From Candidatus Micrarchaeota archaeon (GTDB lineage: Archaea; Micrarchaeota; Micrarchaeia; Micrarchaeales; Micrarchaeaceae), in contig JAKATK010000014.1 of NCBI GenBank assembly GCA_021827995.1, positions 10,888-34,887 on the forward strand: 24,000 bases of DNA, in the 5' to 3' direction. Below the pieces are notes generated by a model. That model made no database searches, was not told the DNA's origin, and saw nothing but the letters and a program-made list of their open reading frames with translations. Position 1 is the stretch's first letter; each line of letters starts with the position of its first letter. Shown here in pieces: positions 946-24,000 of this stretch. The translations under genes were made by a program, and so were the position numbers.

Positions 946-1734
946 TCAGCCTCCGCCGCTCGTGTAGAACTTCAGGAGCCAGAGGCTGCCCCTGTAAAAC
1001 AGGTACGAAAGCACGATCGCTATAGCAGCGACCACCAGCACAGGCGTGTAGTCTATCTTCGAGAACATCAGCTCCGCCGGGTAGAACGAGGCTATGCCGA
1101 TCGGAAGGCCTACGGTGAGCAGGAAGATGCCGGTCACGCCGTATATGCCGAGCGGGTACTCGGCTGTCGACTTCGCTATGCTGACTATCCAGTGCAGGAA
1201 GTTGGCGCTCTTGAAGAGCACGTATGCGAGCATCGACATGAACACCATGAACAGCGTCACCGCCACGCAGCCGAGCGCGACCAGAGCCAACGCGGGTAAG
1301 ATGGCCAGCGGGTTCACCTGCAGCTGCGCAATCGAGTATACGAACAGGGCGAGCCCGCTCACGATGGAGCCGGTGGCAGCCACCCAGCCCTGGCGCGAGA
1401 GCACGAGCACTATCGGGTTGTACGGCTTGGTGAGCACCTGGTCGAAGGTGCCGTTCCGCATGTTGGTCACCAGGTTCCACGGGTTCACCAGGTAGTCGAC
1501 GACGCCGAGTATGGTGTTCGCCAGGCCCGACAGGGCAAGTATCTGGTAGTAGCTCCAACCGGCTATGCCGTTGGATACGCTGTATATCACGCTTATGCCG
1601 ACCACGCTCGCGAGCGTGGACAGCGAGAACACGACCAGCCATATCGCTCCCTGCGACCTGTATATCAGGAACGAGAGCCACTGGTAGCGCTGCGAACTCA
1701 AGAATATCCTCAGGTTCCTAGCTACGCCGAACAC
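946..1734 (-). CDS. ABC-2-type transporter permease subunit (uncharacterised ABC system)
   Basis: 262-aa polytopic hydrophobic protein. Its GTG start directly abuts the stop of the upstream permease (TGA-GTG), making it the last gene of the ATPase-permease-permease operon. From memory it resembles the COG4587/COG3694 permease pair. Confidence 0.7.
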   Translation of the reverse strand: MFGVARNLRIFLSSQRYQWLSFLIYRSQGAIWLVVFSLSTLASVVGISVIYSVSNGIAGWSYYQILALSGLANTILGVVDYLVNPWNLVTNMRNGTFDQVLTKPYNPIVLVLSRQGWVAATGSIVSGLALFVYSIAQLQVNPLAILPALALVALGCVAVTLFMVFMSMLAYVLFKSANFLHWIVSIAKSTAEYPLGIYGVTGIFLLTVGLPIGIASFYPAELMFSKIDYTPVLVVAAIAIVLSYLFYRGSLWLLKFYTSGGG

Positions 1735-2547
1735 TCATACACCCACGGTGTTTATCGCCATGTTCACCCTGGACCAGACCGTTCTGGCAGCAAGAGCCAG
1801 GATGGCCAGCCACACCAGGCCGGTTTCGATGCCGCCGAGCGCTTGCTGCGCCGTCACTATGCCGATGAGCGTGCCGGCAGGCAGGTAGAACAGCAGTGGG
1901 AACGGCGTCAGCATCAGTGCGCCGGCCACCTCTGCCGGGAAGAAGAGCAGCGGCACCACGCCGCCGCCCGCTATGCTGAACACCCACGAGATGCCCTCCG
2001 CTATGCCGTATATGTTAGTGAGGTACACCGCCATGCTGCCTATCATGAAACCTAGAAGGTTTATTATCAGGTAGCCGATGAGCAGCTCTGCAGCGAAGAG
2101 AAGCAGCGTCGATGCGCTTAGGCCGAAGCCGCCGATGAGCACTACCAGTGCCATGATCGGCAGCGACGCGAACAGGAAGAAGAGCAGGTCATAGGGCATG
2201 GCCTCCACGAAGAGCTGCTCGACGTAGCTCATCGGCCTTATCAGCAGCCTGGCTATCGAGCCCTCGCGTATGTCGTCCTGCATGTTGTTCACCACCTTGG
2301 GCCAGCCCAGTATCGGCGATATCGCGCTGAGCACAACGAAATAGGCGAGCATGCCGCTCAGCGTGAGGCCGTTCAACGAGCTTGTGTTCGAGAAGGAGTA
2401 CACAGCAGACCAGACGATTATGTAAATCAGCGATGACATTACCGAGAGTATGAGGGTCAGCACCAGGTCGCTCTTGTAGGCGAGCGTTTCCTTCATGTTG
2501 ACGCGCAGCACAGCCATGTAGGCGCGCAGCCGCCAGGCGCCGGTCAT
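1735..2547 (-). CDS. ABC-2-type transporter permease subunit
   Basis: 270-aa polytopic membrane protein. Its ATG (2545-2547) overlaps the TAA stop (2547-2549) of the upstream ATPase gene by 1 nt. Confidence 0.7.
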   Translation of the reverse strand: MTGAWRLRAYMAVLRVNMKETLAYKSDLVLTLILSVMSSLIYIIVWSAVYSFSNTSSLNGLTLSGMLAYFVVLSAISPILGWPKVVNNMQDDIREGSIARLLIRPMSYVEQLFVEAMPYDLLFFLFASLPIMALVVLIGGFGLSASTLLLFAAELLIGYLIINLLGFMIGSMAVYLTNIYGIAEGISWVFSIAGGGVVPLLFFPAEVAGALMLTPFPLLFYLPAGTLIGIVTAQQALGGIETGLVWLAILALAARTVWSRVNMAINTVGV

Positions 2548-3545
2548 TACACGTCACCCTTCTTGTTCCTCTTGTCTATCCTGTGGTACATCTGGTTCAG
2601 CATCGAGCTCAGGCCAGGCTCCGACAGCCTGAAGTCCCGTATGTTCCTGTCGCTGAGCATGCGCACGAACCACGACTGCCTCACCACCGAGGGCTTGACG
2701 CCTATCTTCATGTAGCCGTCGTTCGAGGTCATGACCCTGCCGAGCTTGGCGTAGGCTGACCTGTCCGCGCCCAGCTTAAGGTACAGCTCGAGTATGACGC
2801 TCTTCCTGAACTGCGACCTCATGCGCTCTTGCGTGCCGTCGAAGACCAGCTTGCCGTGGTCCAGTAGTATTATCCTGTCAACGCCGGCTATGTCATCGAC
2901 AACGTGCGTGGTTATCAGGAACGTTATGCCGCGCTCCCTCCTGAGCGACTGCACGGCCTCTGCTATCGCCATGCGCGACGGCAGGTCGACCCCGATCGTA
3001 GGTTCGTCCATGAACACCACTTCTGGCGCGTGCAGGTTCGCGGCCACGAACTCGCACTTCATGCGCTCCCCGAGGGATAACTGCCTCGTCTGCCTCCTGT
3101 AAACATCCTTGAGGGTTAGCGTCCCGACCAAGCCGTCGAGCCTCTTCTTGAACTCTGCCTCTGGTATGCCGTACATGTCCCTTACATAGTTGAACGTGTC
3201 TATGGGCGGCAGGTTCCAGAAGAGCTGCGGGTGCGTAGACCCGAAGACTATGCCGATGCGCCTGGCCAACCTTATGCGGTCGCGCCACGGGTCCATGCCC
3301 AGCACGCTGATCTTGCCGGAATCCGGGTGCAGCACCCCGGTCAGAAGCTTTATGACAGTAGACTTGCCGCTCCCGTTCCTGCCAAGCAGAGCTATTATCT
3401 CGCCCTTCTCGACGCCGAAGCTGACCCCGTTTACCGCGGTCTTGATCTTCTTCTTCCTGCCGAAGAGAGCCCCGGCTGCGCCCGTCTCGCTCTCGTAGGT
3501 CTTGAACCTCTTCACTATCGCGTCTAAGCGAATAACCTCTGCCAT
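2547..3545 (-). CDS. ABC transporter ATP-binding protein
   Basis: Walker A GRNGSGKST, ABC signature LSLGERMK, Walker B VVFMDEPT, H-loop TTHVVDD. A C-terminal extension of about 90 aa resembles COG4586-type ATPases (from memory). Confidence 0.9.
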   Translation of the reverse strand: MAEVIRLDAIVKRFKTYESETGAAGALFGRKKKIKTAVNGVSFGVEKGEIIALLGRNGSGKSTVIKLLTGVLHPDSGKISVLGMDPWRDRIRLARRIGIVFGSTHPQLFWNLPPIDTFNYVRDMYGIPEAEFKKRLDGLVGTLTLKDVYRRQTRQLSLGERMKCEFVAANLHAPEVVFMDEPTIGVDLPSRMAIAEAVQSLRRERGITFLITTHVVDDIAGVDRIILLDHGKLVFDGTQERMRSQFRKSVILELYLKLGADRSAYAKLGRVMTSNDGYMKIGVKPSVVRQSWFVRMLSDRNIRDFRLSEPGLSSMLNQMYHRIDKRNKKGDV

Positions 3546-4693: not shown

Positions 4694-5386
4694 ATGGCCT
4701 CTAGCGGTGCACTACGCTCGCGTGCCAGCGCACGACCCGGTCGCTATTTCAGGCTCTTGGCAGCGTTGCTGGTCGTGGTCGCTGCATCCACCCTGTACTT
4801 CTCATACGAAGAGGCAGTGCTGCCCACCGGTTCGCCCTGGTTCCCGTCGGCTCTGGCAGGCTCATCCATATCGTTGTCGCTGATGTTGCCGCTCATAGCG
4901 CTCACATACCTGACTTCGAGAGGGCTGCCCCTCGCCGGCGCTCTGCGCAGCCTGGGCCTCGGCAAGGGCAAGCTGTCCATAACCGCCATAGTAACGATAG
5001 GCATAGGCGTCTTCCTGGCCATACTCGGCGTCGAGATAGCGCTGTCGCTTTTCCAGGCCGTGACGAACATAAGCCTGCCAACCAACGTGCAGAGCCTGCT
5101 GCAGGGTCAGGCGCTCTACTATATCGTGTTCGCTGCGCTGATAGGGCCGATAAACGAGGAGATATTCTTCAGGGGCTTCCTAGTCCCAAGGTTCGGAATC
5201 GTCCTTAGCGCCCTGCTCTTCATGATGTTACACAGCGGCTATGCATCGGTAGCAGAACTGATCGGCGCGTTCGTCTTCGGCCTTCTCGCAGGTTACGTGT
5301 TCAAGAGGACCGGTTCGCTCTACACCACGATCATAGGCCACATCCTGGTCAACAGCATGGCGCTGTTCTTCATCATGGCGATCTGA
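4694..5386 (+). CDS. CPBP (CAAX/Abi) family intramembrane metalloprotease
   Basis: Polytopic protein with the family motifs PINEEIFFRGF (EExxxR), MMLHSGY (FxxxH-like) and GHILVNS (HxxxN). Confidence 0.8.
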   Translation: MASSGALRSRASARPGRYFRLLAALLVVVAASTLYFSYEEAVLPTGSPWFPSALAGSSISLSLMLPLIALTYLTSRGLPLAGALRSLGLGKGKLSITAIVTIGIGVFLAILGVEIALSLFQAVTNISLPTNVQSLLQGQALYYIVFAALIGPINEEIFFRGFLVPRFGIVLSALLFMMLHSGYASVAELIGAFVFGLLAGYVFKRTGSLYTTIIGHILVNSMALFFIMAI

Positions 5387-6099
5387 TGCACATGCGCGTC
5401 GTCATGGTCGAGCCCAGGTACCAGATGAACGTCGGTTATGTGGCAAGGGTGGCGGCCAATTTCAGCGCCGAGAGCATAGCCATCGTGAAGCCGCGCTGCA
5501 GTTGCAAGGGCAAGACCGCGACCATGTACTCGAAGCACGCGAGGCCGCTGCTGGAGCGCGCGCGCATATTCGAGACGTTGCGCGAGGCCACAAAGGGCTC
5601 GTTCGTGATGGGCACCACAAGCAACTGGCGCAGGTCCGGTTCGGCCTTCCACAACGCCTTCACGCTTTCGGAATTCATTGCCCGCTTCGGCCCTGGCCTC
5701 ACTGGTCGTCGAGTCTCGGTCGTCCTCGGGAGGGACGACACCGGCCTTACCGCCGAGGAACTGGCCGACTGCGACGCAACCGTAACGATAGAAGCGTGCA
5801 GCTCATACCCTGTGCTAAACATATCGCATGCGCTAGCGGTCATCATGTACACGCTAGGCAGTGTCAAAGGCCGGCAGGAAGAGATGATGGATCATAGGGC
5901 ATCGGAGGCAGCGATAAGCAACCTCGCAAGGCTGTTCGAACGTCACATCGCGTCAAACGCCGACATACGGGACAAGGTGGCGGTAGCGATGGCGTTCAGG
6001 CACGTGATGAGCAGGTCGATGCCCACGCAGGAGGAGCTTGGCGCTATCGCTGCCGCGCTCTCACAAAAAAGGAAACAAGAAAGAATGCTTCGCCGTTAG
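5386..6099 (+). CDS. trmJ: SPOUT-class RNA 2'-O-methyltransferase, TrmJ/LasT-like
   Basis: VMVEPRYQMNVGYVARVAANF, VVLGRDDTGLTAEEL and the knot region YPVLNISHALAVIMY closely parallel bacterial TrmJ. The start overlaps the CPBP stop (TGATG). Confidence 0.75.
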   Translation: MHMRVVMVEPRYQMNVGYVARVAANFSAESIAIVKPRCSCKGKTATMYSKHARPLLERARIFETLREATKGSFVMGTTSNWRRSGSAFHNAFTLSEFIARFGPGLTGRRVSVVLGRDDTGLTAEELADCDATVTIEACSSYPVLNISHALAVIMYTLGSVKGRQEEMMDHRASEAAISNLARLFERHIASNADIRDKVAVAMAFRHVMSRSMPTQEELGAIAAALSQKRKQERMLRR

Positions 6100-6467
6100 C
6101 TCTGCTGCTTCCTGTTCTTTATTATCTTTACCTTGGCAGGCGTCAGCAGTATCTTCTCCTCATCTATGCGTGCTATGTCGCCGTTTATCTTCTGCACGTA
6201 GCCCTTGAGCGAGTCGATCAGTGACTTGAGGGTGTTCGGTCTCTTCGATATCTCCGATATGTTCATCAGTATTATGTTCTTCTTCTCGAGCTCAGCCTGT
6301 ATGAGCGATACGTCCTCCTCCCCCCTGAGAGCCACCGGCTTTATGTAGAAGTCCGCCGGCTCGTTCATGACGTCGACGTTCTCCATCTCTGCGGAGTTCA
6401 TGTACTCCTCCACATCGAGTTCCTTGGACGTGCCCAGCGTCTTGCCTAGTCTGTCAAAGATTCCCAT
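6096..6467 (-). CDS. sepF: Cell division protein SepF
   Basis: MGIFDRLGK N-terminal membrane-targeting helix followed by a DUF552-like core (YIKPVALRGEEDVSLIQAELEKKNIILMNISEI...GDIARIDEEKILLTP). ATG 6467 is preferred over the track TTG 6488 because GGGTG lies about 9 nt upstream. The 3' end overlaps the trmJ-like stop by 4 nt (convergent). Confidence 0.8.
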   Translation of the reverse strand: MGIFDRLGKTLGTSKELDVEEYMNSAEMENVDVMNEPADFYIKPVALRGEEDVSLIQAELEKKNIILMNISEISKRPNTLKSLIDSLKGYVQKINGDIARIDEEKILLTPAKVKIIKNRKQQS

Positions 6468-6526
6468 ATTCAGCACCCTTGTCGCCAAAACGGTTAGCTT
6501 TCTGTGTTAGGCTTTTTAATACTTTC

Positions 6527-6548
6527 GTGGTTGACTGGTGGTTGACTG
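6527..6548. repeat. Perfect tandem direct repeat 2 x GTGGTTGACTG
   Basis: Read directly: copies at 6527-6537 and 6538-6548 are identical. They sit just beyond the A/T box GCTTTTTAATAC (6511-6522) in the sepF/TRAM divergent intergenic region. Confidence 0.9.
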
Positions 6549-6654
6549 CCTCATCGCGCGTGCGTTCAAAATTGCGAATCGCGCCAATCATAAACGCCAT
6601 AGAAAGTTCTGCGGCAAGCCTCCCAGAAACGCATAATAATCTGGATTACAAAGG

Positions 6655-6915
6655 ATGAATTGGATTGGCGATTCTGTGACAAGCGTTCGTCCTATGGAAC
6701 CTGAACCGTTGCCTCCGTTCAAGGCAGGTGACAGGGTCTCTGTCACGCTGGATATGGTCGAGAAGGGCGGCAAGCATGCGTTCGGGACAGTCGATGGCCG
6801 CTGGGTCGTCGAGGTCGCTCCTTCATCCGGCAGGCCTGGGCTTGCCATAGGCCAGAGGGTCGAGGTCGTCATAACAGAGACACGGCCTGGCCACGCCAGC
6901 GGCAGGCAGGTGTGA
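6655..6915 (+). CDS. Small TRAM-like beta-barrel protein (module A)
   Basis: FKAGDRVSVTLDMVEKGGKHAFGTVDGRWVVEV...LAIGQRVEVVITETRPGHASG follows the standalone archaeal TRAM pattern (xGDxxxVxI...G.G.A...G..v.V.....iGq.V.V.I). The alternative start ATG 6694 (MEPEPLPP..., 73 aa) fits better with the TATA-like CATAATAAT at 6632-6640. Confidence 0.55.
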   Translation: MNWIGDSVTSVRPMEPEPLPPFKAGDRVSVTLDMVEKGGKHAFGTVDGRWVVEVAPSSGRPGLAIGQRVEVVITETRPGHASGRQV

Positions 6916-8048
6916 TGGTGGTTGTTTTGGCCGATATCATTGATGGGGGGTTCGTGGAAAAGGCGCCGACAAAGGCCACTGCGGATGTCGCCAGCGAGGA
7001 GACACCTGCTACAGTATCAGAGCCAGAAATAAACGAGAACGTTGACCAGGAGCGCTTCGCGGCCTTCAGGTTGTACGTCGAAGGGCAGATACGCACCACG
7101 CTGGACAGGTTACGGCCGCTATACAAGGATGCCCATGAGTCTATGCTGGGCAAGGACGCGATGATGACAGAGTTGAGGATGCCAAAGATAGTCGTATCGC
7201 AGTTCGAGAATCCAGGCGACCTATCCACACTTGCGCAAGCCGACTTCTCGTCCAACACGATAACCGTATTCCTGCCGCAGTTCAAGGAATTCTCCGATAT
7301 GCAGGACTCCAAGAGCGATAAAACGCGCGCCGACCTCAGGGCCAGCATCGAGACCACCCTAGGGCACGAGCTAGGTCACATGCTTATAGACCGCCTAATA
7401 TTCGATGCACGCATCAGCGGGAGGTACAACGACCGGTCGCAGTGGCCGCTCTCCTTCGTCTACGAGGGCAGCGGCAAGAGGATGCAGGAGGCTCTCGCCC
7501 AGGTCATCGGCACGTACGTGCATCTGTCGCTTGAGGGCCGCGAGACGGACTGCGCCTCCATCGCCGAGAATATGCTTGGCAAGCTCGCTAGCTCCTTCGA
7601 CGGTTGCGCAAGGTACCACAAGAACTTCATCGACCATTACGATGCAGAGATAAGGGACATGGGCATCGACGTCCTGCGCGACCGCCACGTCAAGGAGCCT
7701 ACTGACGAGGAGATAAAGCTTGCCGGGCTGGAGCGTTTCAAGGAGACCTGTGCATGCCAGACCAACTGGTACCTAGTCTACGGACTGCCGCGTGCCGGCC
7801 TTGCGTCGGCCATGGTGGAGCGCGGCAGCAGCAGCCTGGCCTCATTCATAAGCGATGCGTTGCTTAAGCCGGAGAGCCTCGGTCCTGCGATCAGCAACGA
7901 GATAATGGACGGTGACAACCACGTCGAGAGGTTGGACGCGGAACTGGGCAACGCGACGCTGGCAGCCAAGAACGAGATATTGTACAAGCGGTTCCTGGCC
8001 GCGAAGGAACTGCCCGCTGTCAAGCGTGCGCGCGCCGCCTCGTCCTGA
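6915..8048 (+). CDS. Hypothetical protein with HExxH...E (gluzincin-like) metallopeptidase signature (module A)
   Basis: 377 aa. TTLGHELGHMLIDRL is followed 36 residues later by RMQEALAQVIGTY. The HELGH context recalls ImmA/IrrE (M78)-type or MA-clan peptidases. An acidic, low-complexity N-terminus precedes it. ATG 6915 overlaps the TRAM-like stop TGA 6913-6915. Genome-typical ATA/AGG codon usage supports coding. I did not recognise a family. Confidence 0.55.
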   Translation: MVVVLADIIDGGFVEKAPTKATADVASEETPATVSEPEINENVDQERFAAFRLYVEGQIRTTLDRLRPLYKDAHESMLGKDAMMTELRMPKIVVSQFENPGDLSTLAQADFSSNTITVFLPQFKEFSDMQDSKSDKTRADLRASIETTLGHELGHMLIDRLIFDARISGRYNDRSQWPLSFVYEGSGKRMQEALAQVIGTYVHLSLEGRETDCASIAENMLGKLASSFDGCARYHKNFIDHYDAEIRDMGIDVLRDRHVKEPTDEEIKLAGLERFKETCACQTNWYLVYGLPRAGLASAMVERGSSSLASFISDALLKPESLGPAISNEIMDGDNHVERLDAELGNATLAAKNEILYKRFLAAKELPAVKRARAASS

Positions 8049-11971: not shown

Positions 11972-13930
11972 TCAGAGGCCCTTCTCGATCGCGTCCATAA
12001 TCTCGTGGGCTAGGAGCTCCTTCGTGCCGTCTACAAGCTTGGACGAGCCATCACGCATCAGTATGTGGGCGCGGTGCCTCGCCTCGGTGACCTGTGAGGA
12101 GTCGTTCAGCACCATGAGGCCGGCGCCGAGCTCCTTCATCCTGTGCCGGCCTGCTTCTATCATCCCCTTGTCGCTCATCATGTACTCCAGCTTGAAGCCG
12201 GCTATGAACAACTTCGGGAACTCTCTCGCTACCCTCTCTATGATCTTCGGAGTTGGCGTGAGCGACAGGTTCCACTTCCCGGTTGACTTTAGCTTGGTAT
12301 GCAGCTTGCTCTCAGGTTCGAAGTCCAGGACCGCGGCCGCGAATATTGCGGCATCGTATGGGCCAGACCTTAACTCCGAGAGGGTAGCGTCCAGCATCTC
12401 CTCAACCGTATTTGCCGCTATAGATCCCACGTACATCGGAACTGGCACCCTGGCTGGCCCAGTTATTACCTTGATCTCGCAGCCGCGCCTGAAGGCCTCC
12501 CTCGCTATGCTCGCGCCAAGCGCCCCGCTCGAGCTGTTCGATATGTACCTGACAGCGTCAAGGTAGTACCTGGTGGGCCCGGAGAGCAGCAGGATCCTCC
12601 TGCCTCTCAGCCTGCCTACGGCCAACTTCCTGTGCACGCTGTCCGAAACCTCGCGTATGCCAGGTATCTTGGCGATGCCCTCATCGATCCTTGGCGCTAT
12701 CACCATCGCGCCGCGCTTCCGCAGCTCCGCCAGGCTCTCCTTAAGCAGCGGATTGTCGTACAGCTTCATGTTCATGGCCGGCACTACTATCAGCTTGTCA
12801 TTGGGGTTGGCCGCGCACAGCGTCGTCACTGCGGTGTCCGCTATTCCAAGCGCAATCTTCCGTATAGTGTTCAGCGTCGCAGGGTAAACCAGTATTGCGT
12901 CGTAATCGGTGAGGTGCTCAGACATGCCGGTCAGGTGCGTGACCACGCCCCTGCCGGTCGCCCACTCCATGAGCGCTGGGCTGACGCCGAACTTCACAGC
13001 GCCATCGGTCATGAAGCACTCTACGTCGCAGCCGCTCCTACGCAGTTCCCTGGCGAGCCTGGGCGCCATTACGCTCGCGACGCTACCTGACATGCACAAC
13101 GCTACGCGCCTGCCAGCCAGCCAGTCGTTCTTCAGCGTCAGTTCGCCACCGGTCGGGTGCTTAGCGAACAGGCTACTGTAGTCCCCGAAGCCGTTAGTGC
13201 ATGGATTGCCTTCGGTGTAGAGAAGCCTGGACCTGCCAGCATCATCAGCGAGCGCGATTATTGTAGACGAGGTCATCTTCCAGTCGCCTGATCCGTGGAA
13301 GCATATCGAGGCGTGGCCCTTCTGTGATACGTGGTCCGCAGCGATAACCCCGATGCGTTTCAGCGCGTCGTCCAGCGACGCGCCTGGGATGCCAGCCGCG
13401 AGTCTCATGGCCCTCTCACTCCTGAGCGCAGAGCCCTTCCTGATCGCAGCGGTGCCAGCCTTGTAGACCGCGCCCTTCCTATGGACGAAGCTGGTTATGA
13501 CGTGGACACCGGCCTCAAGCTCTGTCTTCTGTACACGGCCTTCCTCGTAAAGCACGTGGAAAGCGGAGCGCTTGTCTGCGACCACGAAGTTGCCGCGCTT
13601 ATAGCCCATAGTGACCTCCTTCACAAGATAGTCGACAGCTGTCTTGGCGTCGTCGAACATGTTGAGCAGGTCGAGCATGAGAAGGCCGCGGCTGCGCCTG
13701 AAGTCGGTATCGATACCGGTGTGCTGGTCAGTGACTGCTACGAACAGGCCGCTCTTGTTAGCACCGATCCAGGTGCCGCCGCTCCTCACGTCAATAGGCG
13801 CATAAATCTCGCGCGCGCCCTTTATCCTGCGCGGCGGGTACTCCAGCGTGTCCGAACGCTCGTACCTGTTGTGCATAGCGACTATCTGGAAGCCGTCGAT
13901 TACCCGGTAGAGCAGCACCAGAGTGCACAT
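11972..13930 (-). CDS. coaBC: Tri-domain fusion: N-terminal TANGO2/NRDE-family domain + phosphopantothenoylcysteine decarboxylase (CoaC) + phosphopantothenate-cysteine ligase (CoaB)
   Basis: Uninterrupted 652-aa ORF. Residues 1 to about 256 (nt 13163-13930) show MC start, AMHNRYE (cf. NRDE), GGTWIG, GLFVAVTD, RSRGLL, RGNFVVAD and TSSTIIALAD, collinear with human TANGO2. Residues about 272-435 (nt 12626-13117) are a flavoprotein fold with VALCMSGSVAS, SEHL and VVPAMN. Residues about 441-652 (nt 11975-12610) carry GPTRYYLDAVRYISNSSSG, AAAVLDF and KLHTKLKS, the CoaB signatures. Confidence 0.85.
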   Translation of the reverse strand: MCTLVLLYRVIDGFQIVAMHNRYERSDTLEYPPRRIKGAREIYAPIDVRSGGTWIGANKSGLFVAVTDQHTGIDTDFRRSRGLLMLDLLNMFDDAKTAVDYLVKEVTMGYKRGNFVVADKRSAFHVLYEEGRVQKTELEAGVHVITSFVHRKGAVYKAGTAAIRKGSALRSERAMRLAAGIPGASLDDALKRIGVIAADHVSQKGHASICFHGSGDWKMTSSTIIALADDAGRSRLLYTEGNPCTNGFGDYSSLFAKHPTGGELTLKNDWLAGRRVALCMSGSVASVMAPRLARELRRSGCDVECFMTDGAVKFGVSPALMEWATGRGVVTHLTGMSEHLTDYDAILVYPATLNTIRKIALGIADTAVTTLCAANPNDKLIVVPAMNMKLYDNPLLKESLAELRKRGAMVIAPRIDEGIAKIPGIREVSDSVHRKLAVGRLRGRRILLLSGPTRYYLDAVRYISNSSSGALGASIAREAFRRGCEIKVITGPARVPVPMYVGSIAANTVEEMLDATLSELRSGPYDAAIFAAAVLDFEPESKLHTKLKSTGKWNLSLTPTPKIIERVAREFPKLFIAGFKLEYMMSDKGMIEAGRHRMKELGAGLMVLNDSSQVTEARHRAHILMRDGSSKLVDGTKELLAHEIMDAIEKGL

Positions 13931-13960: not shown

Positions 13961-15889
13961 CTAGACAAAATTTAAGCTTGCGCCAGGCATGGAACCGTTG
14001 GGCGGGTATGCTCTAGTGCGTATCCAGTAGAACGTGACACTGCCACCGGAGCTTATGAATAAGCAGAGATACGATGGACCGATGTTAGGTATGTCATTTG
14101 AAGACGTAAGCTGGTTGCCGTAGTTATAATAACCATTGAGGTCTGTCTGGGACTGCCATGAGAGCGTGACTGTTATCGGGTAGCTGTAGGAACTGCCGGA
14201 TACCTGATTCGTGTTGCCGTTTGATATGGTTGGAAACTCTACCCACTGGTGCAGGCCGGAGGTAACGCCGTCAACCCATCCCCACCAACCGGAACAGCAG
14301 CCAGATGGCGTTTGCGTGTTCCAACCCAGCAGCTCGTCATGGCCATCGTATTGCGCCGTACCAGTATAGAAGTACGCGTCTGCCATCAGACCGGCGGGAG
14401 AGAGCCGGGTGGCGTAGTAGAAGAATATAGAGCCGCCGTTGCCAGTCAACGTTAAGCCGTTGTTGATGCTCTCGCCACCGCCATTGGCGCTGTAAGTCCA
14501 ACCTGACGGTACGGAAGAACCAGAGAAATCGGTGTAGACATTGAACACGTTTGCGCCGTTGTCGTACTGCGCGTATCTGGGACTTAGCTGCGGCGCCTCG
14601 CCTGCGATGGGCACGTCGAACTCCGTGCTTAACGGCTCGAACACCATGTATATCGTGTTTCCGGGCGCCGTCTGGGTTTCTCCGTTCGGCAGCTTTACCC
14701 AGAAGATCGCCTGCGACGACGATTGGTTGCTACACGCGGTCTCGGGGCAGCCCTCGAGCCACGAGGCCAGCGGCCCAGACGGGACGCCGTTCGTGAGCGA
14801 GGAGTAGAACCTTATGTTGCCCAGGTCGCCGCTCTCATAAGATGAATACGAAGAGGGGTTGAAAGTGATTTCCTGCTGGAACGTGCCTGATATCGTGCTG
14901 CCAGGATTGAGCGTTATCTGCACGTAAGGCGATGTCACTGTGAGCGTATACACGGCATTGCTCGTGGCACCGGTGAGCGCATTGGTGCCTGTCACCGTGA
15001 TCTGGTAACTGCCCGGCTGCGCCGACGCGGTGGTGTTTATCGATAGGATGCTGTTGCACGTAGGATCAGGCGTGCACGACAACGGGCTGAACGCCTTCGT
15101 TATAGTGGGCGGCGCGGTATCAGATAGCGTCACTACGTTGGCGTTGTTGGATATTGGTGTAGTAATCGTCACCAACGCGTTGGTCGACTGGCCTGCCGCG
15201 ATCGTGTTGCTGGTAGGGCTCACCGATACGGTGAAGCTGAACTGCCGCGCCGGTGGCGGTGCTGGCGGAGGCGAGGAAGATCCGGAACCTCCGCCGAAAT
15301 AGCCGCCGAACGATGCGCTGTTGGTACCCGCCTCCTTCGCCGTTATCGTAGCAACCTTCGAGTATGCCGTCGGGGCCGAGCACGGGCTCAGGCAGTAGCC
15401 CAGCCAGACGTAACCCGCGAACGGCGTCCCTATCGGAGCGTTCGCAGGTATCTGGCCGTACGCGAACTTGCTGGCGTTGAAGTCTGCGCCGACCGTTTGG
15501 CCCGGAAGTAGGTTGCCTATGAAGAGCGCCTTTGAAAGGTCGTTGGCCGTGAAGTTCTGCGGTACGCCCATACTGTTTAGCGGTTCGCCATCCGCGGCCA
15601 TGAACATAAAGGAATCGAAGTATTCCCTGCCCGTCGTCTGGCCGAATGTTATGCCTATACCGTTGGCGGTGTATACCAGGCTCTTGCAGACGAAGCCTGC
15701 TTGGGCGATGCAGGCCTGCGGTGCCAGGTTCGAGCCGTTGAAGACGCCGAGTTCGAAGAGCGCAGCTAGCACTACTGCTATGATCAGTATGGCCCATCCG
15801 TAGGTCATCAAGTACTCCATGGCTGACTGTGCTTTACTCCCGATCTTTTTGGCGATGGTACGCTGCGACTGCATGTGAATACTAACCAT
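13961..15889 (-). CDS. Large secreted/surface protein with archaeal class III (prepilin-type) signal peptide, beta-sandwich, DUF2341-like and lectin-like domains
   Basis: N-terminus ...KKIGSKA/QSAMEYLMTYGWAILIIAVVLAALF carries the Q-x-x-x-E-Y-L plus hydrophobic helix motif. It is followed by the Pro-rich linker GSGSSSPPPAPPPA, an S/T/N-rich beta-sandwich (GSYQITVTGT...YTLTVT), a DUF2341-like segment (GNIRFYSS...ASWLEGC...AIFWVKLPNG...IYMVF) and a W/G/Y-rich C-terminal lectin-like region. ATG 15874 (MQSQR...) is an alternative, possibly leaderless, start behind the TATA-like TTTAAATT at about 15897-15904. Confidence 0.75.
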   Translation of the reverse strand: MVSIHMQSQRTIAKKIGSKAQSAMEYLMTYGWAILIIAVVLAALFELGVFNGSNLAPQACIAQAGFVCKSLVYTANGIGITFGQTTGREYFDSFMFMAADGEPLNSMGVPQNFTANDLSKALFIGNLLPGQTVGADFNASKFAYGQIPANAPIGTPFAGYVWLGYCLSPCSAPTAYSKVATITAKEAGTNSASFGGYFGGGSGSSSPPPAPPPARQFSFTVSVSPTSNTIAAGQSTNALVTITTPISNNANVVTLSDTAPPTITKAFSPLSCTPDPTCNSILSINTTASAQPGSYQITVTGTNALTGATSNAVYTLTVTSPYVQITLNPGSTISGTFQQEITFNPSSYSSYESGDLGNIRFYSSLTNGVPSGPLASWLEGCPETACSNQSSSQAIFWVKLPNGETQTAPGNTIYMVFEPLSTEFDVPIAGEAPQLSPRYAQYDNGANVFNVYTDFSGSSVPSGWTYSANGGGESINNGLTLTGNGGSIFFYYATRLSPAGLMADAYFYTGTAQYDGHDELLGWNTQTPSGCCSGWWGWVDGVTSGLHQWVEFPTISNGNTNQVSGSSYSYPITVTLSWQSQTDLNGYYNYGNQLTSSNDIPNIGPSYLCLFISSGGSVTFYWIRTRAYPPNGSMPGASLNFV

Positions 15890-23296: not shown

Positions 23297-23572
23297 ATGC
23301 CGGCAAAGAAGGGTGGAGCAGGCGAGGAGACTGGTGCCAGCATGCACCTTGCGATCGACGAATCCGAGGAGGCCGTGCAGGTGGGCGACGAACTGGATGT
23401 CAGGATAGAGCGCGTGCTGAGCAGCGGACAGGGCCAGGCCAGCATCAAGGACAATGACGGCTACCCGTATCTTATATTCGTTAGGGGCAGGAAGCTGAAG
23501 ATGGGCGAGGTTGTGAAGGTTTCCATAGTGAGGACGAGGGGTGGCGTTGCAGAGGCTGTCGCGCTCTCCTGA
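23297..23572 (+). CDS. Small TRAM-like beta-barrel protein (module B)
   Basis: VQVGDELDVRIERVLSSGQGQASIKDNDGYPYLIFVRGRKLKMGEVVKVSIVRTRGGVAEAVAL matches the standalone archaeal TRAM pattern (GDGIARv.GfvIFV.G.k.Gd.V.V.I..v....A.A). Confidence 0.65.
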   Translation: MPAKKGGAGEETGASMHLAIDESEEAVQVGDELDVRIERVLSSGQGQASIKDNDGYPYLIFVRGRKLKMGEVVKVSIVRTRGGVAEAVALS

Positions 23573-23583
23573 CCGGTGTTCTA

Positions 23584-24000
23584 ATGCAATTCAACGTAAA
23601 GGGCGTGAATATCAGGAGCGAGGAGAGCGTAGAGGCTAGCAGCGCACCGGCAGCGGCAGAGCACGCAAAGGAGGTAACGCGTCATGCGTCTACGGACAAG
23701 ACCTCCGAGCTGCGCGTCTACGCTGAGACGCGGAAGACCGAGATGTTCGTCTACATAGACGAGCTCTACATGGGCGTGCAGCGCGGACTGAACCCTTCCT
23801 TGACCAAGCTCGTTCCGATGGGTCAGCCGAGGCTTGATCAGTCGCTCAGCGACCGAAACGATGGCACCATCGCCGTGTGGGAAAGGCGCGGGCCTACTGG
23901 AGGAGTCATCACGCTTGACAAGAAAGCGCTCGACCTGTTCTCACGCATGCAGCAGTACGAGGCCGACGGCAATACAGACGCGGCTGGCAGGATAAGGCAC
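23584..24000 (+). CDS. Hypothetical protein, paralog of the 6915..8048 HExxH protein (module B), 3' end beyond window; absent from the supplied ORF track
   Basis: Hand translation gives 139 codons without a stop, from an ATG preceded by GGTG: MQFNVKGVNIRSEE...LRVYAETRKTEMFVYIDELYMGVQRGL...GVITLDKKALDLFSRMQQYEADGNTDAAGRIRH. It is collinear with 6915..8048: LRVY/FRLY, then LY at +19/20 in both, ITL/ITV at +66/67, and FSRMQ/FSDMQ at +11 from there. The window ends about where the HExxH motif would be expected. Confidence 0.55.
   Translation, partial: MQFNVKGVNIRSEESVEASSAPAAAEHAKEVTRHASTDKTSELRVYAETRKTEMFVYIDELYMGVQRGLNPSLTKLVPMGQPRLDQSLSDRNDGTIAVWERRGPTGGVITLDKKALDLFSRMQQYEADGNTDAAGRIRH

Follow-up and report, generated by a model that had tools for sequence, protein, structure and literature searches.

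A 24,000-nucleotide (nt) stretch of a Candidatus Micrarchaeota archaeon genome (assembly GCA_021827995.1, contig JAKATK010000014.1, positions 10,888 to 34,887 of the forward strand; hereafter the window) carries a gene for a small TRAM-like protein directly followed by a gene for a 377-residue protein with a HExxH motif. We find that the linkage of these two genes, as judged from related sequences, is ancient, tight, and co-diverging, and it is the strongest result of our analysis. A TRAM gene lies immediately upstream of the large gene, on the same strand, in 12/12 distinct core-clade pairs. Spacings range from a 1-nt overlap to a 52-nt gap, and the pairs span at least seven different neighborhoods. 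This count covers core-clade members with a readable contig. The original prediction, made from the letters of the window alone, had proposed that the two proteins form a module. The genomic linkage of the two families holds for all 12 pairs of this one deep clade, in varied surroundings. The spacing between the two genes and their neighbors are as follows (L and P numbers are our handles for loci and large proteins):

Window pair 1: 1-nt overlap; SepF and GNAT
P0002 (L001): 15-nt gap; isochorismatase and a different GNAT
P0005 (L012-17, L032): 13 nt; AP endonuclease and GNAT
P0006 (L031): ~11 nt; AP-endonuclease homologue and GNAT
L033: 9 nt; AP-endonuclease homologue and GNAT
P0007 (L034): 3 nt; acetyl-CoA-synthetase-like and phosphoesterase-like genes (by eye)
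P0008 (L018-20): 13 nt; ribosomal proteins and FtsZ
P0010 (L028-30): 13 nt; M24 peptidase
P0011 (L021-22): 12 nt; ThiI and Band_7
P0013 (L025-27): 30 nt; AbiEi/AbiEii and type I restriction-modification (RM)
Second, frameshifted L025 pair: 52 nt; same AbiE/RM island as P0013
Window second pair: 11 nt; MFS transporter

A neighbor-joining tree places all TRAM-linked members of the large-protein family in one clade, and no TRAM neighbor is present at the four outlying members with a readable contig (P0017, P0021, P0024, and P0025). Pairwise identities of the TRAMs correlate with those of the peptidase-like proteins (Mantel test, P = 1e-4 in both comparisons: r = 0.79 over 10 pairs, r = 0.70 over 12). 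The two genes have therefore been passed on and copied together from before the clade's deepest divergences, across which the peptidases are ~25% identical. Of ten pairs compared, nine have a GGTG motif ahead of the large gene (L025a has none), as does the second pair of the window; GGTG is complementary to the 3′ end of archaeal 16S rRNA (the anti-Shine-Dalgarno).

The overlapping layout that had been described for pair 1 is confirmed by the coordinates of the open reading frames (ORFs). On the + strand, the small ORF runs from ATG 6655 to TGA 6913-6915 (86 aa) and the large ORF from ATG 6915-6917 to TGA 8046-8048 (377 aa; 378 aa from an alternative GTG at 6912), with stop and start sharing one base. 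This arrangement suggests that the large gene is translated by coupling to the TRAM gene. The length of the small protein, given earlier as 86 or 73 aa, has to be revised. All close homologues share an MTS... N-terminus; the L003 homologue (71% identical) starts with GTG, with GGTGAT just before it; and the upstream motif GAAACGCATAATAA(T/C)CT is common to L003 and the window, the window 17-mer of 6626..6642 recurring, with one mismatch, 36 nt 5′ of the L003 GTG. Because of the MTS starts, the L003 start with its GGTGAT, and the common 17-mer, we place the conserved start of the small gene at GTG 6676, which gives 79 aa. Both ORFs are more than chance openings, since their homologues are under purifying selection and the HExxH motif is invariant across 22 homologues at 18-31% identity. 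The features of pair 1 are:

6626..6642, + strand: promoter-like motif GAAACGCATAATAATCT (TATA-like CATAATAA), ~35 nt 5′ of the conserved GTG; candidate promoter
6676..6915, + strand: pair 1 small gene, divergent standalone TRAM protein of 79 aa, with start placed from homologues (ORF open from ATG 6655)
6908..6912, + strand: Shine-Dalgarno-like AGGTG within the 3′ end of the TRAM gene, directly 5′ of the large-gene start
6915..8048, + strand: pair 1 large gene, 377-aa soluble gluzincin-like protein, from the ORF, the family alignment, and an AlphaFold2 model

SepF (- strand) and the TRAM gene diverge, and the intergenic DNA that separates them contains a perfect tandem duplication of the 11-mer GTGGTTGACTG (6527-6548), possibly an operator or other regulatory site.

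Within the large protein, HELGH occupies residues 151-155 (nt 7365-7379) as part of TTLGHELGHMLIDRL, and QEALAQ occupies residues 191-196, where E192 (codon at 7488-7490) lies 37 residues past H155. The two motifs are:

7365..7379, + strand: codons H151-E152-L153-G154-H155 (HExxH), with H151, E152, and H155 invariant in 22 members; middle of predicted helix 135-167
7485..7511, + strand: codons Q191-E192-A-L-A-Q196-V-I-G199, proposed “glutamate helix” (E/D)xxA(E/Q)xxG, from conservation and predicted helix 186-206

In the 22-member alignment (18-31% identity to the query), only Met1, H151, E152, H155, and G199 are invariant, and L153, A195, and Y289 are nearly so. Position 192 is E in 18 members and D in the other 4. 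The resulting family signature is (I/V)GHELGHAL ... (E/D)(G/S/A)LA(E/Q)xIGxY. Residues 1-44 hold 10 D/E against 2 K/R, in line with the acidic N-terminus that had been noted. The protein has no hydrophobic segment (maximum KD19 = 1.07) and is thus soluble and cytoplasmic. Relative to the 98%-identical copy of the pair 1 locus in a metagenome-assembled genome (MAG; GCA_027353935.1), the large gene has a dN/dS of 0.25, based on few differences, which is consistent with ordinary purifying selection.

Although described as an orphan by the original prediction, the large protein has a small family of its own. This family is rare: a HMMER search of 1.84 billion cluster representatives returned 25 proteins at E ≤ 1e-3, of which 14 reached E ≤ 1e-10. 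Every named member is annotated as “hypothetical protein,” one of them labeled Marsarchaeota. Members that could be located are in Micrarchaeota MAGs, and the four loci found among 185,579 GTDB species genomes all belong to “Candidatus Micrarchaeota archaeon,” which agrees with the DPANN distribution that had been guessed. A word-indexed homology search gave at least two relatives per protein and, with the 22-sequence profile, at least three. The first pattern scan of genome contigs detected no relatives, nor did two scans of metagenome contigs, for which the patterns were probably unsuitable; two scans of viral contigs detected none either. Searched directly against Pfam and NCBIfam, neither protein had a match above threshold; the best for the large protein was DUF4344, “putative metallopeptidase” (E = 0.038). 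Among distant members, P0021 (315 aa; L035 3148-4948) starts 5 nt after a HipA_2 kinase-like gene, and P0024 (506 aa) adjoins a phage-type integrase and a family B DNA polymerase.

An AlphaFold2 model of the large protein built from the 22-member alignment has a pLDDT of 89.5 and a pTM of 0.86; an earlier model from three sequences (pLDDT 66) was left out of the fold search. The N-terminus is predicted to be disordered over about residues 1-30 (up to ~1-44), and a catalytic-type domain spans ~45-210. This domain is modeled as a long helix (45-78), short strands (91-94, 107-110, and 115-118), a helix (120-131), a long helix (135-167) with HELGH at its center, and a helix (186-206) with E192. 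Gluzincin catalytic domains have the order backing helix, sheet, active-site helix, and glutamate helix, and the modeled order of elements in the large protein is gluzincin-like. The earlier proposal that HExxH and a downstream Glu form a gluzincin-type site is supported: HExxH and the putative Glu ligand are conserved family-wide and fall on consecutive predicted helices. The C-terminal half, already suspected of being helical, is modeled as all-helical (~213-376).

Every weak similarity that we detected for the large protein points to a zinc peptidase. Searched against PDB sequences, the 22-sequence profile matched best the thermolysin-like neutral protease 1npc (E = 0.17; IGHELGHAL...EGLAEvIG aligned with VIGHELTHAV...NEAISDIFG), followed by Ste24 (M48) and matrix metalloproteinases, while a three-sequence profile had no matches at E ≤ 10. 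When the 22 members were searched individually against Pfam, DUF4344 was matched by seven (best 9e-4), DUF5700, “putative zinc dependent peptidase,” by one (4e-4), and M48 (PF01435) by two at E = 0.42, not reaching the gathering score. Comparison by hhalign with two HtpX-like M48 proteins from related contigs gave probabilities of 42% and 22%, the stretch aligned to the M48 pattern being “MPKv.. / ..A.AaY / NsItfY / lD.iIGHELGH.” Foldseek matches to PDB zincins are local (selecase 4qhf, projannalysin 4jix, 3lmc, and deuterolysin), as are those to viral models of M48, IrrE-N-terminal-like, and SprT-like proteins (probability 0.9-0.99, target-normalized TM ≤ 0.52, E ≥ 0.037).

HELGH had originally been placed in the context of the M78 (ImmA/IrrE) peptidases, and this part of the prediction is not supported. 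Peptidase_M78 is matched by none of the 22 members at E ≤ 1, and the family profile reaches no IrrE chain in PDB at E ≤ 10. No helix-turn-helix (HTH) domain was found in the two proteins, and the upstream partner is a TRAM in each of the 12 core-clade pairs. The weak signals point instead to M48/HtpX, minigluzincins, and the NExxSD-type motif of thermolysin. We read the large protein as a new family of the gluzincin clan outside M78, with a core nearest to the M48/minigluzincin type and a private helical domain of 165 residues.

The likeness to M48 (HtpX and Ste24) and the minigluzincins extends along the core: an MPK-type strand, an A(F/Y) strand, an I-x-(V/F) strand, a helix, the HExxH helix, and the Glu helix, in which the fourth residue past the Glu is acidic or an amide. 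Unlike M48, the large protein is without transmembrane segments and does not reach the Pfam M48 family; unlike the minigluzincins, it is three times their size and has its own 165-residue helical domain and a dedicated TRAM partner. With thermolysin (M4), it shares HExxH followed by xE(A/S/G)(L/I)(A/S)(E/Q/D)xxG on the next helix. However, this match has an E value of just 0.17, HExxH and Glu are spaced 37 residues apart instead of ~20, the similarity goes no further, and the large protein is a cytoplasmic one that lacks signal peptide and propeptide.

The small protein can be placed at family level as a divergent standalone TRAM. Alone, it matches Pfam TRAM (PF01938) at E = 0.035-0.042 (14.4 bits against a gathering score of 21). 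At E ≤ 0.1, TRAM is matched by eight of nine partner proteins from related loci (best 7e-9), and the partner-family profile reaches the standalone archaeal TRAMs 1yez_A (MM1357; E = 3.6e-6) and 1yvc_A (E = 2.7e-5) in PDB. The TRAM-like character first proposed by eye is therefore well founded. In most partner TRAMs, the canonical positions (Y-x-I-F-V, V-K-V-x-I, and F-A) are intact, while the TRAMs of the window clade have W-V-V-E-V and PG-H-A in their place and a conserved MTS...PLPP N-terminal extension. Net charges of the partners range from -9 to +2, neutral to acidic. In size and fold family, and most of them also in the canonical aromatic and basic positions, they resemble the known standalone archaeal TRAMs (MM1357/1yez, MrR5/1yvc, TRAM0076, and TRAM3066), and those of methanogens are RNA-binding RNA chaperones (PMC5572242, PMC6705878). 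They differ from these in being fixed upstream of a zincin gene with which they co-diverge and, in the window clade, in the extension and the replaced aromatics.

Two loci are unusual in what lies downstream of the TRAM gene (L003 5372-7390 and L004 1024-3042). There, the TRAM has the same promoter-like motif as in the window, and 300 nt downstream follows an unusual 491-aa multi-pass M48 (HtpX-like) peptidase and then a DUF7557-ParE pair. We considered this M48 protein as an alternative TRAM partner and set it aside: the 300 nt hold no remnant of a family gene, and the M48 gene has an upstream TATA-like element of its own. Such a partnership is unproven and the arrangement possibly due to chance.

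The window holds a second pair, overlooked in the original prediction, close to its end:

23297..23572, + strand: pair 2 small gene, bona fide TRAM of 91 aa (Pfam TRAM E = 2.9e-7, 30.7 bits against a gathering score of 21)
23584..24000, + strand: 5′ part of the pair 2 large gene, which runs past the window end; follows an 11-nt spacer containing GGTG and encodes a paralogue in the same zincin-like family

By tblastn, 23584-24000 encodes residues 1-139 of P0022 at 97.8% identity; P0022 has 351 aa and the motifs HETAH and EEGLAELIGFY. Pairs 1 and 2 are only 24% identical in both TRAM and peptidase. Two pairs each are also found in MAS5.bin21 (L032, L034), in the isolate clean615 (L033, L018), and at L025. 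The L025 pairs (1712-3064 and 4728-6194) flank an AbiEi/AbiEii toxin-antitoxin (TA) system in an island with AAA_14/DUF4143 ATPases, type I RM, and UvrD-PDDEXK genes, and a frameshift splits the peptidase gene of the first pair into ORFs of 171 and 198 aa. At syntenic sites, the pair has changed faster than the flanking genes: the TRAMs of the window and its relatives are 37-39% and their peptidases 31-32% identical, compared with 57-70% for GNAT and 72-74% for malic enzyme. Together, co-divergence, several diverged pairs per genome, and fast evolution fit cognate partner pairs that are insulated from each other.

We tentatively favor the reading that the TRAM and the large protein form a cognate protease-partner module that works in the manner of IrrE-DdrO and ImmA-ImmR. 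The two genes would form one operon, probably co-translated, and a two-protein module specific to Micrarchaeota. The large protein would be a soluble cytoplasmic zinc metallopeptidase of gluzincin type, founding a new family; its activity is suggested by the motif and its conservation. Its zinc ligands would be H151, H155, and E192 and its general base E152, and the nearly invariant Y289 of the helical C-terminal domain is a candidate transition-state stabilizer. The small protein would be a dedicated TRAM β-barrel that binds its own peptidase in a complex of fixed proportion. By analogy with the known systems, the peptidase would recognize the nucleic-acid-binding partner encoded just upstream and hold it in a complex or cleave it on a signal, the partner being an RNA-type binder (TRAM) where known systems have a DNA-binding HTH protein. 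Zinc binding, peptidase activity, physical interaction, and partner cleavage are thus all presumed here. The pairs, being multiple, insulated, and fast-diverging, resemble protease-partner systems and are unlike housekeeping RNA enzymes.

Known systems of this kind offer a close but incomplete comparison. As in IrrE-DdrO and ImmA-ImmR, a small nucleic-acid-binding protein is encoded beside (here just upstream of) a soluble HExxH...E zincin, and the pairs look cognate and occur several to a genome. In contrast to those systems, the partner is a TRAM β-barrel and not an HTH protein, there is no detectable M78 membership, the zincin carries a large helical C-terminal bundle, and the pairs occur in DPANN archaea, mostly in housekeeping neighborhoods rather than on mobile elements. 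Serralysin-type operons (AprA/AprI, PrtA/Inh) encode a zinc metallopeptidase with a small β-barrel inhibitor, whose N-terminal tail lies in the active-site cleft. Unlike the pair described here, those are periplasmic or secreted bacterial metzincins, and neither component is homologous to ours. In IrrE-DdrO and in Zn-protease/Xre pairs, the protease cleaves the partner that its neighboring gene encodes (PMC6868357, PMC12828697, PMC10538038).

Several observations weigh against the protease-partner reading. Unlike typical mobile protease-repressor or TA cassettes, most loci have housekeeping neighbors and keep their synteny from species to species, and the PADLOC and PHROGs libraries gave no matches for the pair. 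The predicted fold of the large protein has no significant match (best E of 0.18 in PDB and 0.037 among viral models); Foldseek against PDB gave no overall match, the best hits being unrelated helical proteins. The canonical aromatic and basic positions of most partner TRAMs fit an RNA-targeting adaptor equally well. Moreover, the TRAM at L003/L004, 71% identical to that of the window, has no adjacent family partner and apparently forms its own transcription unit; thus, a TRAM of this type can exist without a neighboring partner.

The chief rival has the TRAM as an RNA-binding (or ribosome- or tRNA-binding) subunit that guides the zincin to substrates associated with RNA or makes the zincin depend on RNA for its activity. 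We regard this as possible but on the unlikely side. It has parallels in the TRAM domains of MiaB, RimO, and RumA, in PIN-TRAM proteins, and in DNA-activated zincins of the SprT/Wss1 type, and the local fold matches include viral models of SprT-like proteins. It would also agree with the role of standalone archaeal TRAMs as RNA chaperones (PMC5572242, PMC6705878), with the canonical positions kept in most partners, with a pair 2 TRAM that scores above the Pfam gathering threshold, and with a tight coupling that suits a stoichiometric complex. However, RNA-processing housekeeping complexes are usually single-copy and slowly evolving, whereas here each tiny genome has multiple pairs that evolve faster than their flanks, one copy being frameshifted. 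In addition, the aromatic patch is incomplete in the window-clade TRAMs, none of the partners is strongly basic (they range from neutral to acidic), and no RNA-related domain was found in the large protein. Improbable, in our judgment, is that the zincin fold serves something beyond peptide hydrolysis (as a YbeY-like metallo-ribonuclease or another RNA-linked hydrolase, with the TRAM acting as its RNA clamp) or that the operon's products do not act jointly. TRAM modules do usually accompany RNA-modifying or RNA-cleaving enzymes. The fusion of TRAM to a methylthiotransferase (PMC2948915) counts for this explanation. So does the fact that the large protein could not be assigned to any peptidase family. 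Yet HExxH with E(xx)A(E/Q) is a gluzincin signature of the peptidase type, unlike the H3xH5xH of YbeY, and every weak match is a peptidase, while co-divergence and the 12/12 linkage argue against a chance operon.

That the pair is a TA or conflict module, in which the zincin or the TRAM is toxic and the other neutralizes it, with the pairs acting as selfish or defense cassettes, seems unlikely to us. The small upstream gene that overlaps or abuts a larger downstream gene, the several diverged pairs per genome with one frameshifted pseudogene, and the divergence faster than that of the flanks would all suit it. So would the L025 pairs around AbiEi/AbiEii, near type I RM and UvrD-PDDEXK, and the distant member 5 nt after a HipA_2 kinase gene, and Zn-protease/Xre pairs have been treated as type II TA (PMC10538038). 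Set against this are the empty PADLOC, PHROGs, and viral-contig searches and an ordinary recent dN/dS (0.25). Of about eight contexts, one is a defense island; most loci are housekeeping and syntenic across species with ~72% identical malic enzymes, and the family is confined to one phylum rather than horizontally spread. We consider it very improbable that the large protein is a true ImmA/IrrE protease (M78, COG2856) with a noncanonical partner. The HELGH motif, the local Foldseek matches to viral “IrrE N-terminal-like” models (probability 0.99, E = 0.07, TM 0.52 on target), and a gene order, small nucleic-acid binder and then protease, that resembles immR-immA speak for it. The absence of Peptidase_M78 and IrrE matches at the thresholds given above and of an HTH partner or domain speaks against it, as do the long C-terminal helical bundle, which has no known match, and an N-terminal strand pattern that aligns better with M48/HtpX.

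A bolder reading, which we think unlikely, is that the pair acts at the RNA level as repressor-protease switches do with DNA-binding partners, or that the protease depends on RNA. A dedicated RNA-binding barrel would then control the activity of the metallopeptidase or its choice of target. Its role may then be the signal-triggered cleavage of an RNA chaperone or regulator, the clearing of proteins stuck on RNA (an RNA analogue of SprT/Wss1), or that of a new TA class made of these components. If this were so, every minimal DPANN genome would keep several versions insulated from one another.

DPANN genomes of ~1 Mb keep at least two diverged copies of the pair, and the module is therefore probably needed or impossible to lose. 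The pair also defines a zinc-peptidase-like family that is absent from Pfam, NCBIfam, and PDB, with a confident model that has no overall match to a solved structure. In the searched literature, “TRAM domain” and “zincin” are combined nowhere, and the only combination with “metalloprotease” is unrelated. A fixed protease-like partner for a standalone TRAM thus appears unreported so far in that literature, where such TRAMs figure solely as general RNA chaperones. Should the partner logic prove right, the repressor-protease principle of IrrE-DdrO and ImmA-ImmR would extend from DNA-binding to RNA-binding partners, in a tractable two-protein system. These findings should be of moderate relevance to specialists in proteases, DPANN archaea, and RNA chaperones.

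Pair 1 lies among archaeal genes. Upstream are aIF5A, S24e, S27, a Rce1-like protease, a SpoU methylase, and SepF, and downstream are a GNAT acetyltransferase, malic enzyme, a DEAD helicase, and CoaBC. Of the four GTDB loci, two have the same downstream GNAT within the stretch read (57-70% identity) and three have downstream malic enzyme (72-74%, tblastn). This synteny and the near-identical MAG copy point to a Micrarchaeota (DPANN) origin of the window as well. We considered the GNAT as a third component of the module and rejected it: it is adjacent only in the window clade, the GNAT of L001 is a different gene, and L034 has none.

Cell-division genes adjoin the pair in two of its clades, SepF lying divergently upstream in the window (6096-6488, - strand) and FtsZ convergently downstream at L018-L020 (L018 6050-7138, - strand). 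These are 2 of ~16 slots in genomes of ~1000 genes (an estimate), and may reflect chance or hint at a target. At L013, L014, and L016 (~7650-8033), a short Cas12f1-like_TNB (TnpB-type) fragment lies between the peptidase and GNAT genes in some strains only. In one variant of the P0008 locus, a HicA toxin-like gene (L019 2020-2238) is inserted directly upstream of the TRAM gene. Elsewhere in the window, 13961-15889 (- strand) is a 642-aa ORF with no Pfam match at E ≤ 1e-3, and 11972-13930 (- strand) encodes a 652-aa protein with an N-terminal TANGO2 domain and CoaBC domains (Flavoprotein and DFP). This fusion thus physically links TANGO2 to coenzyme A biosynthesis.

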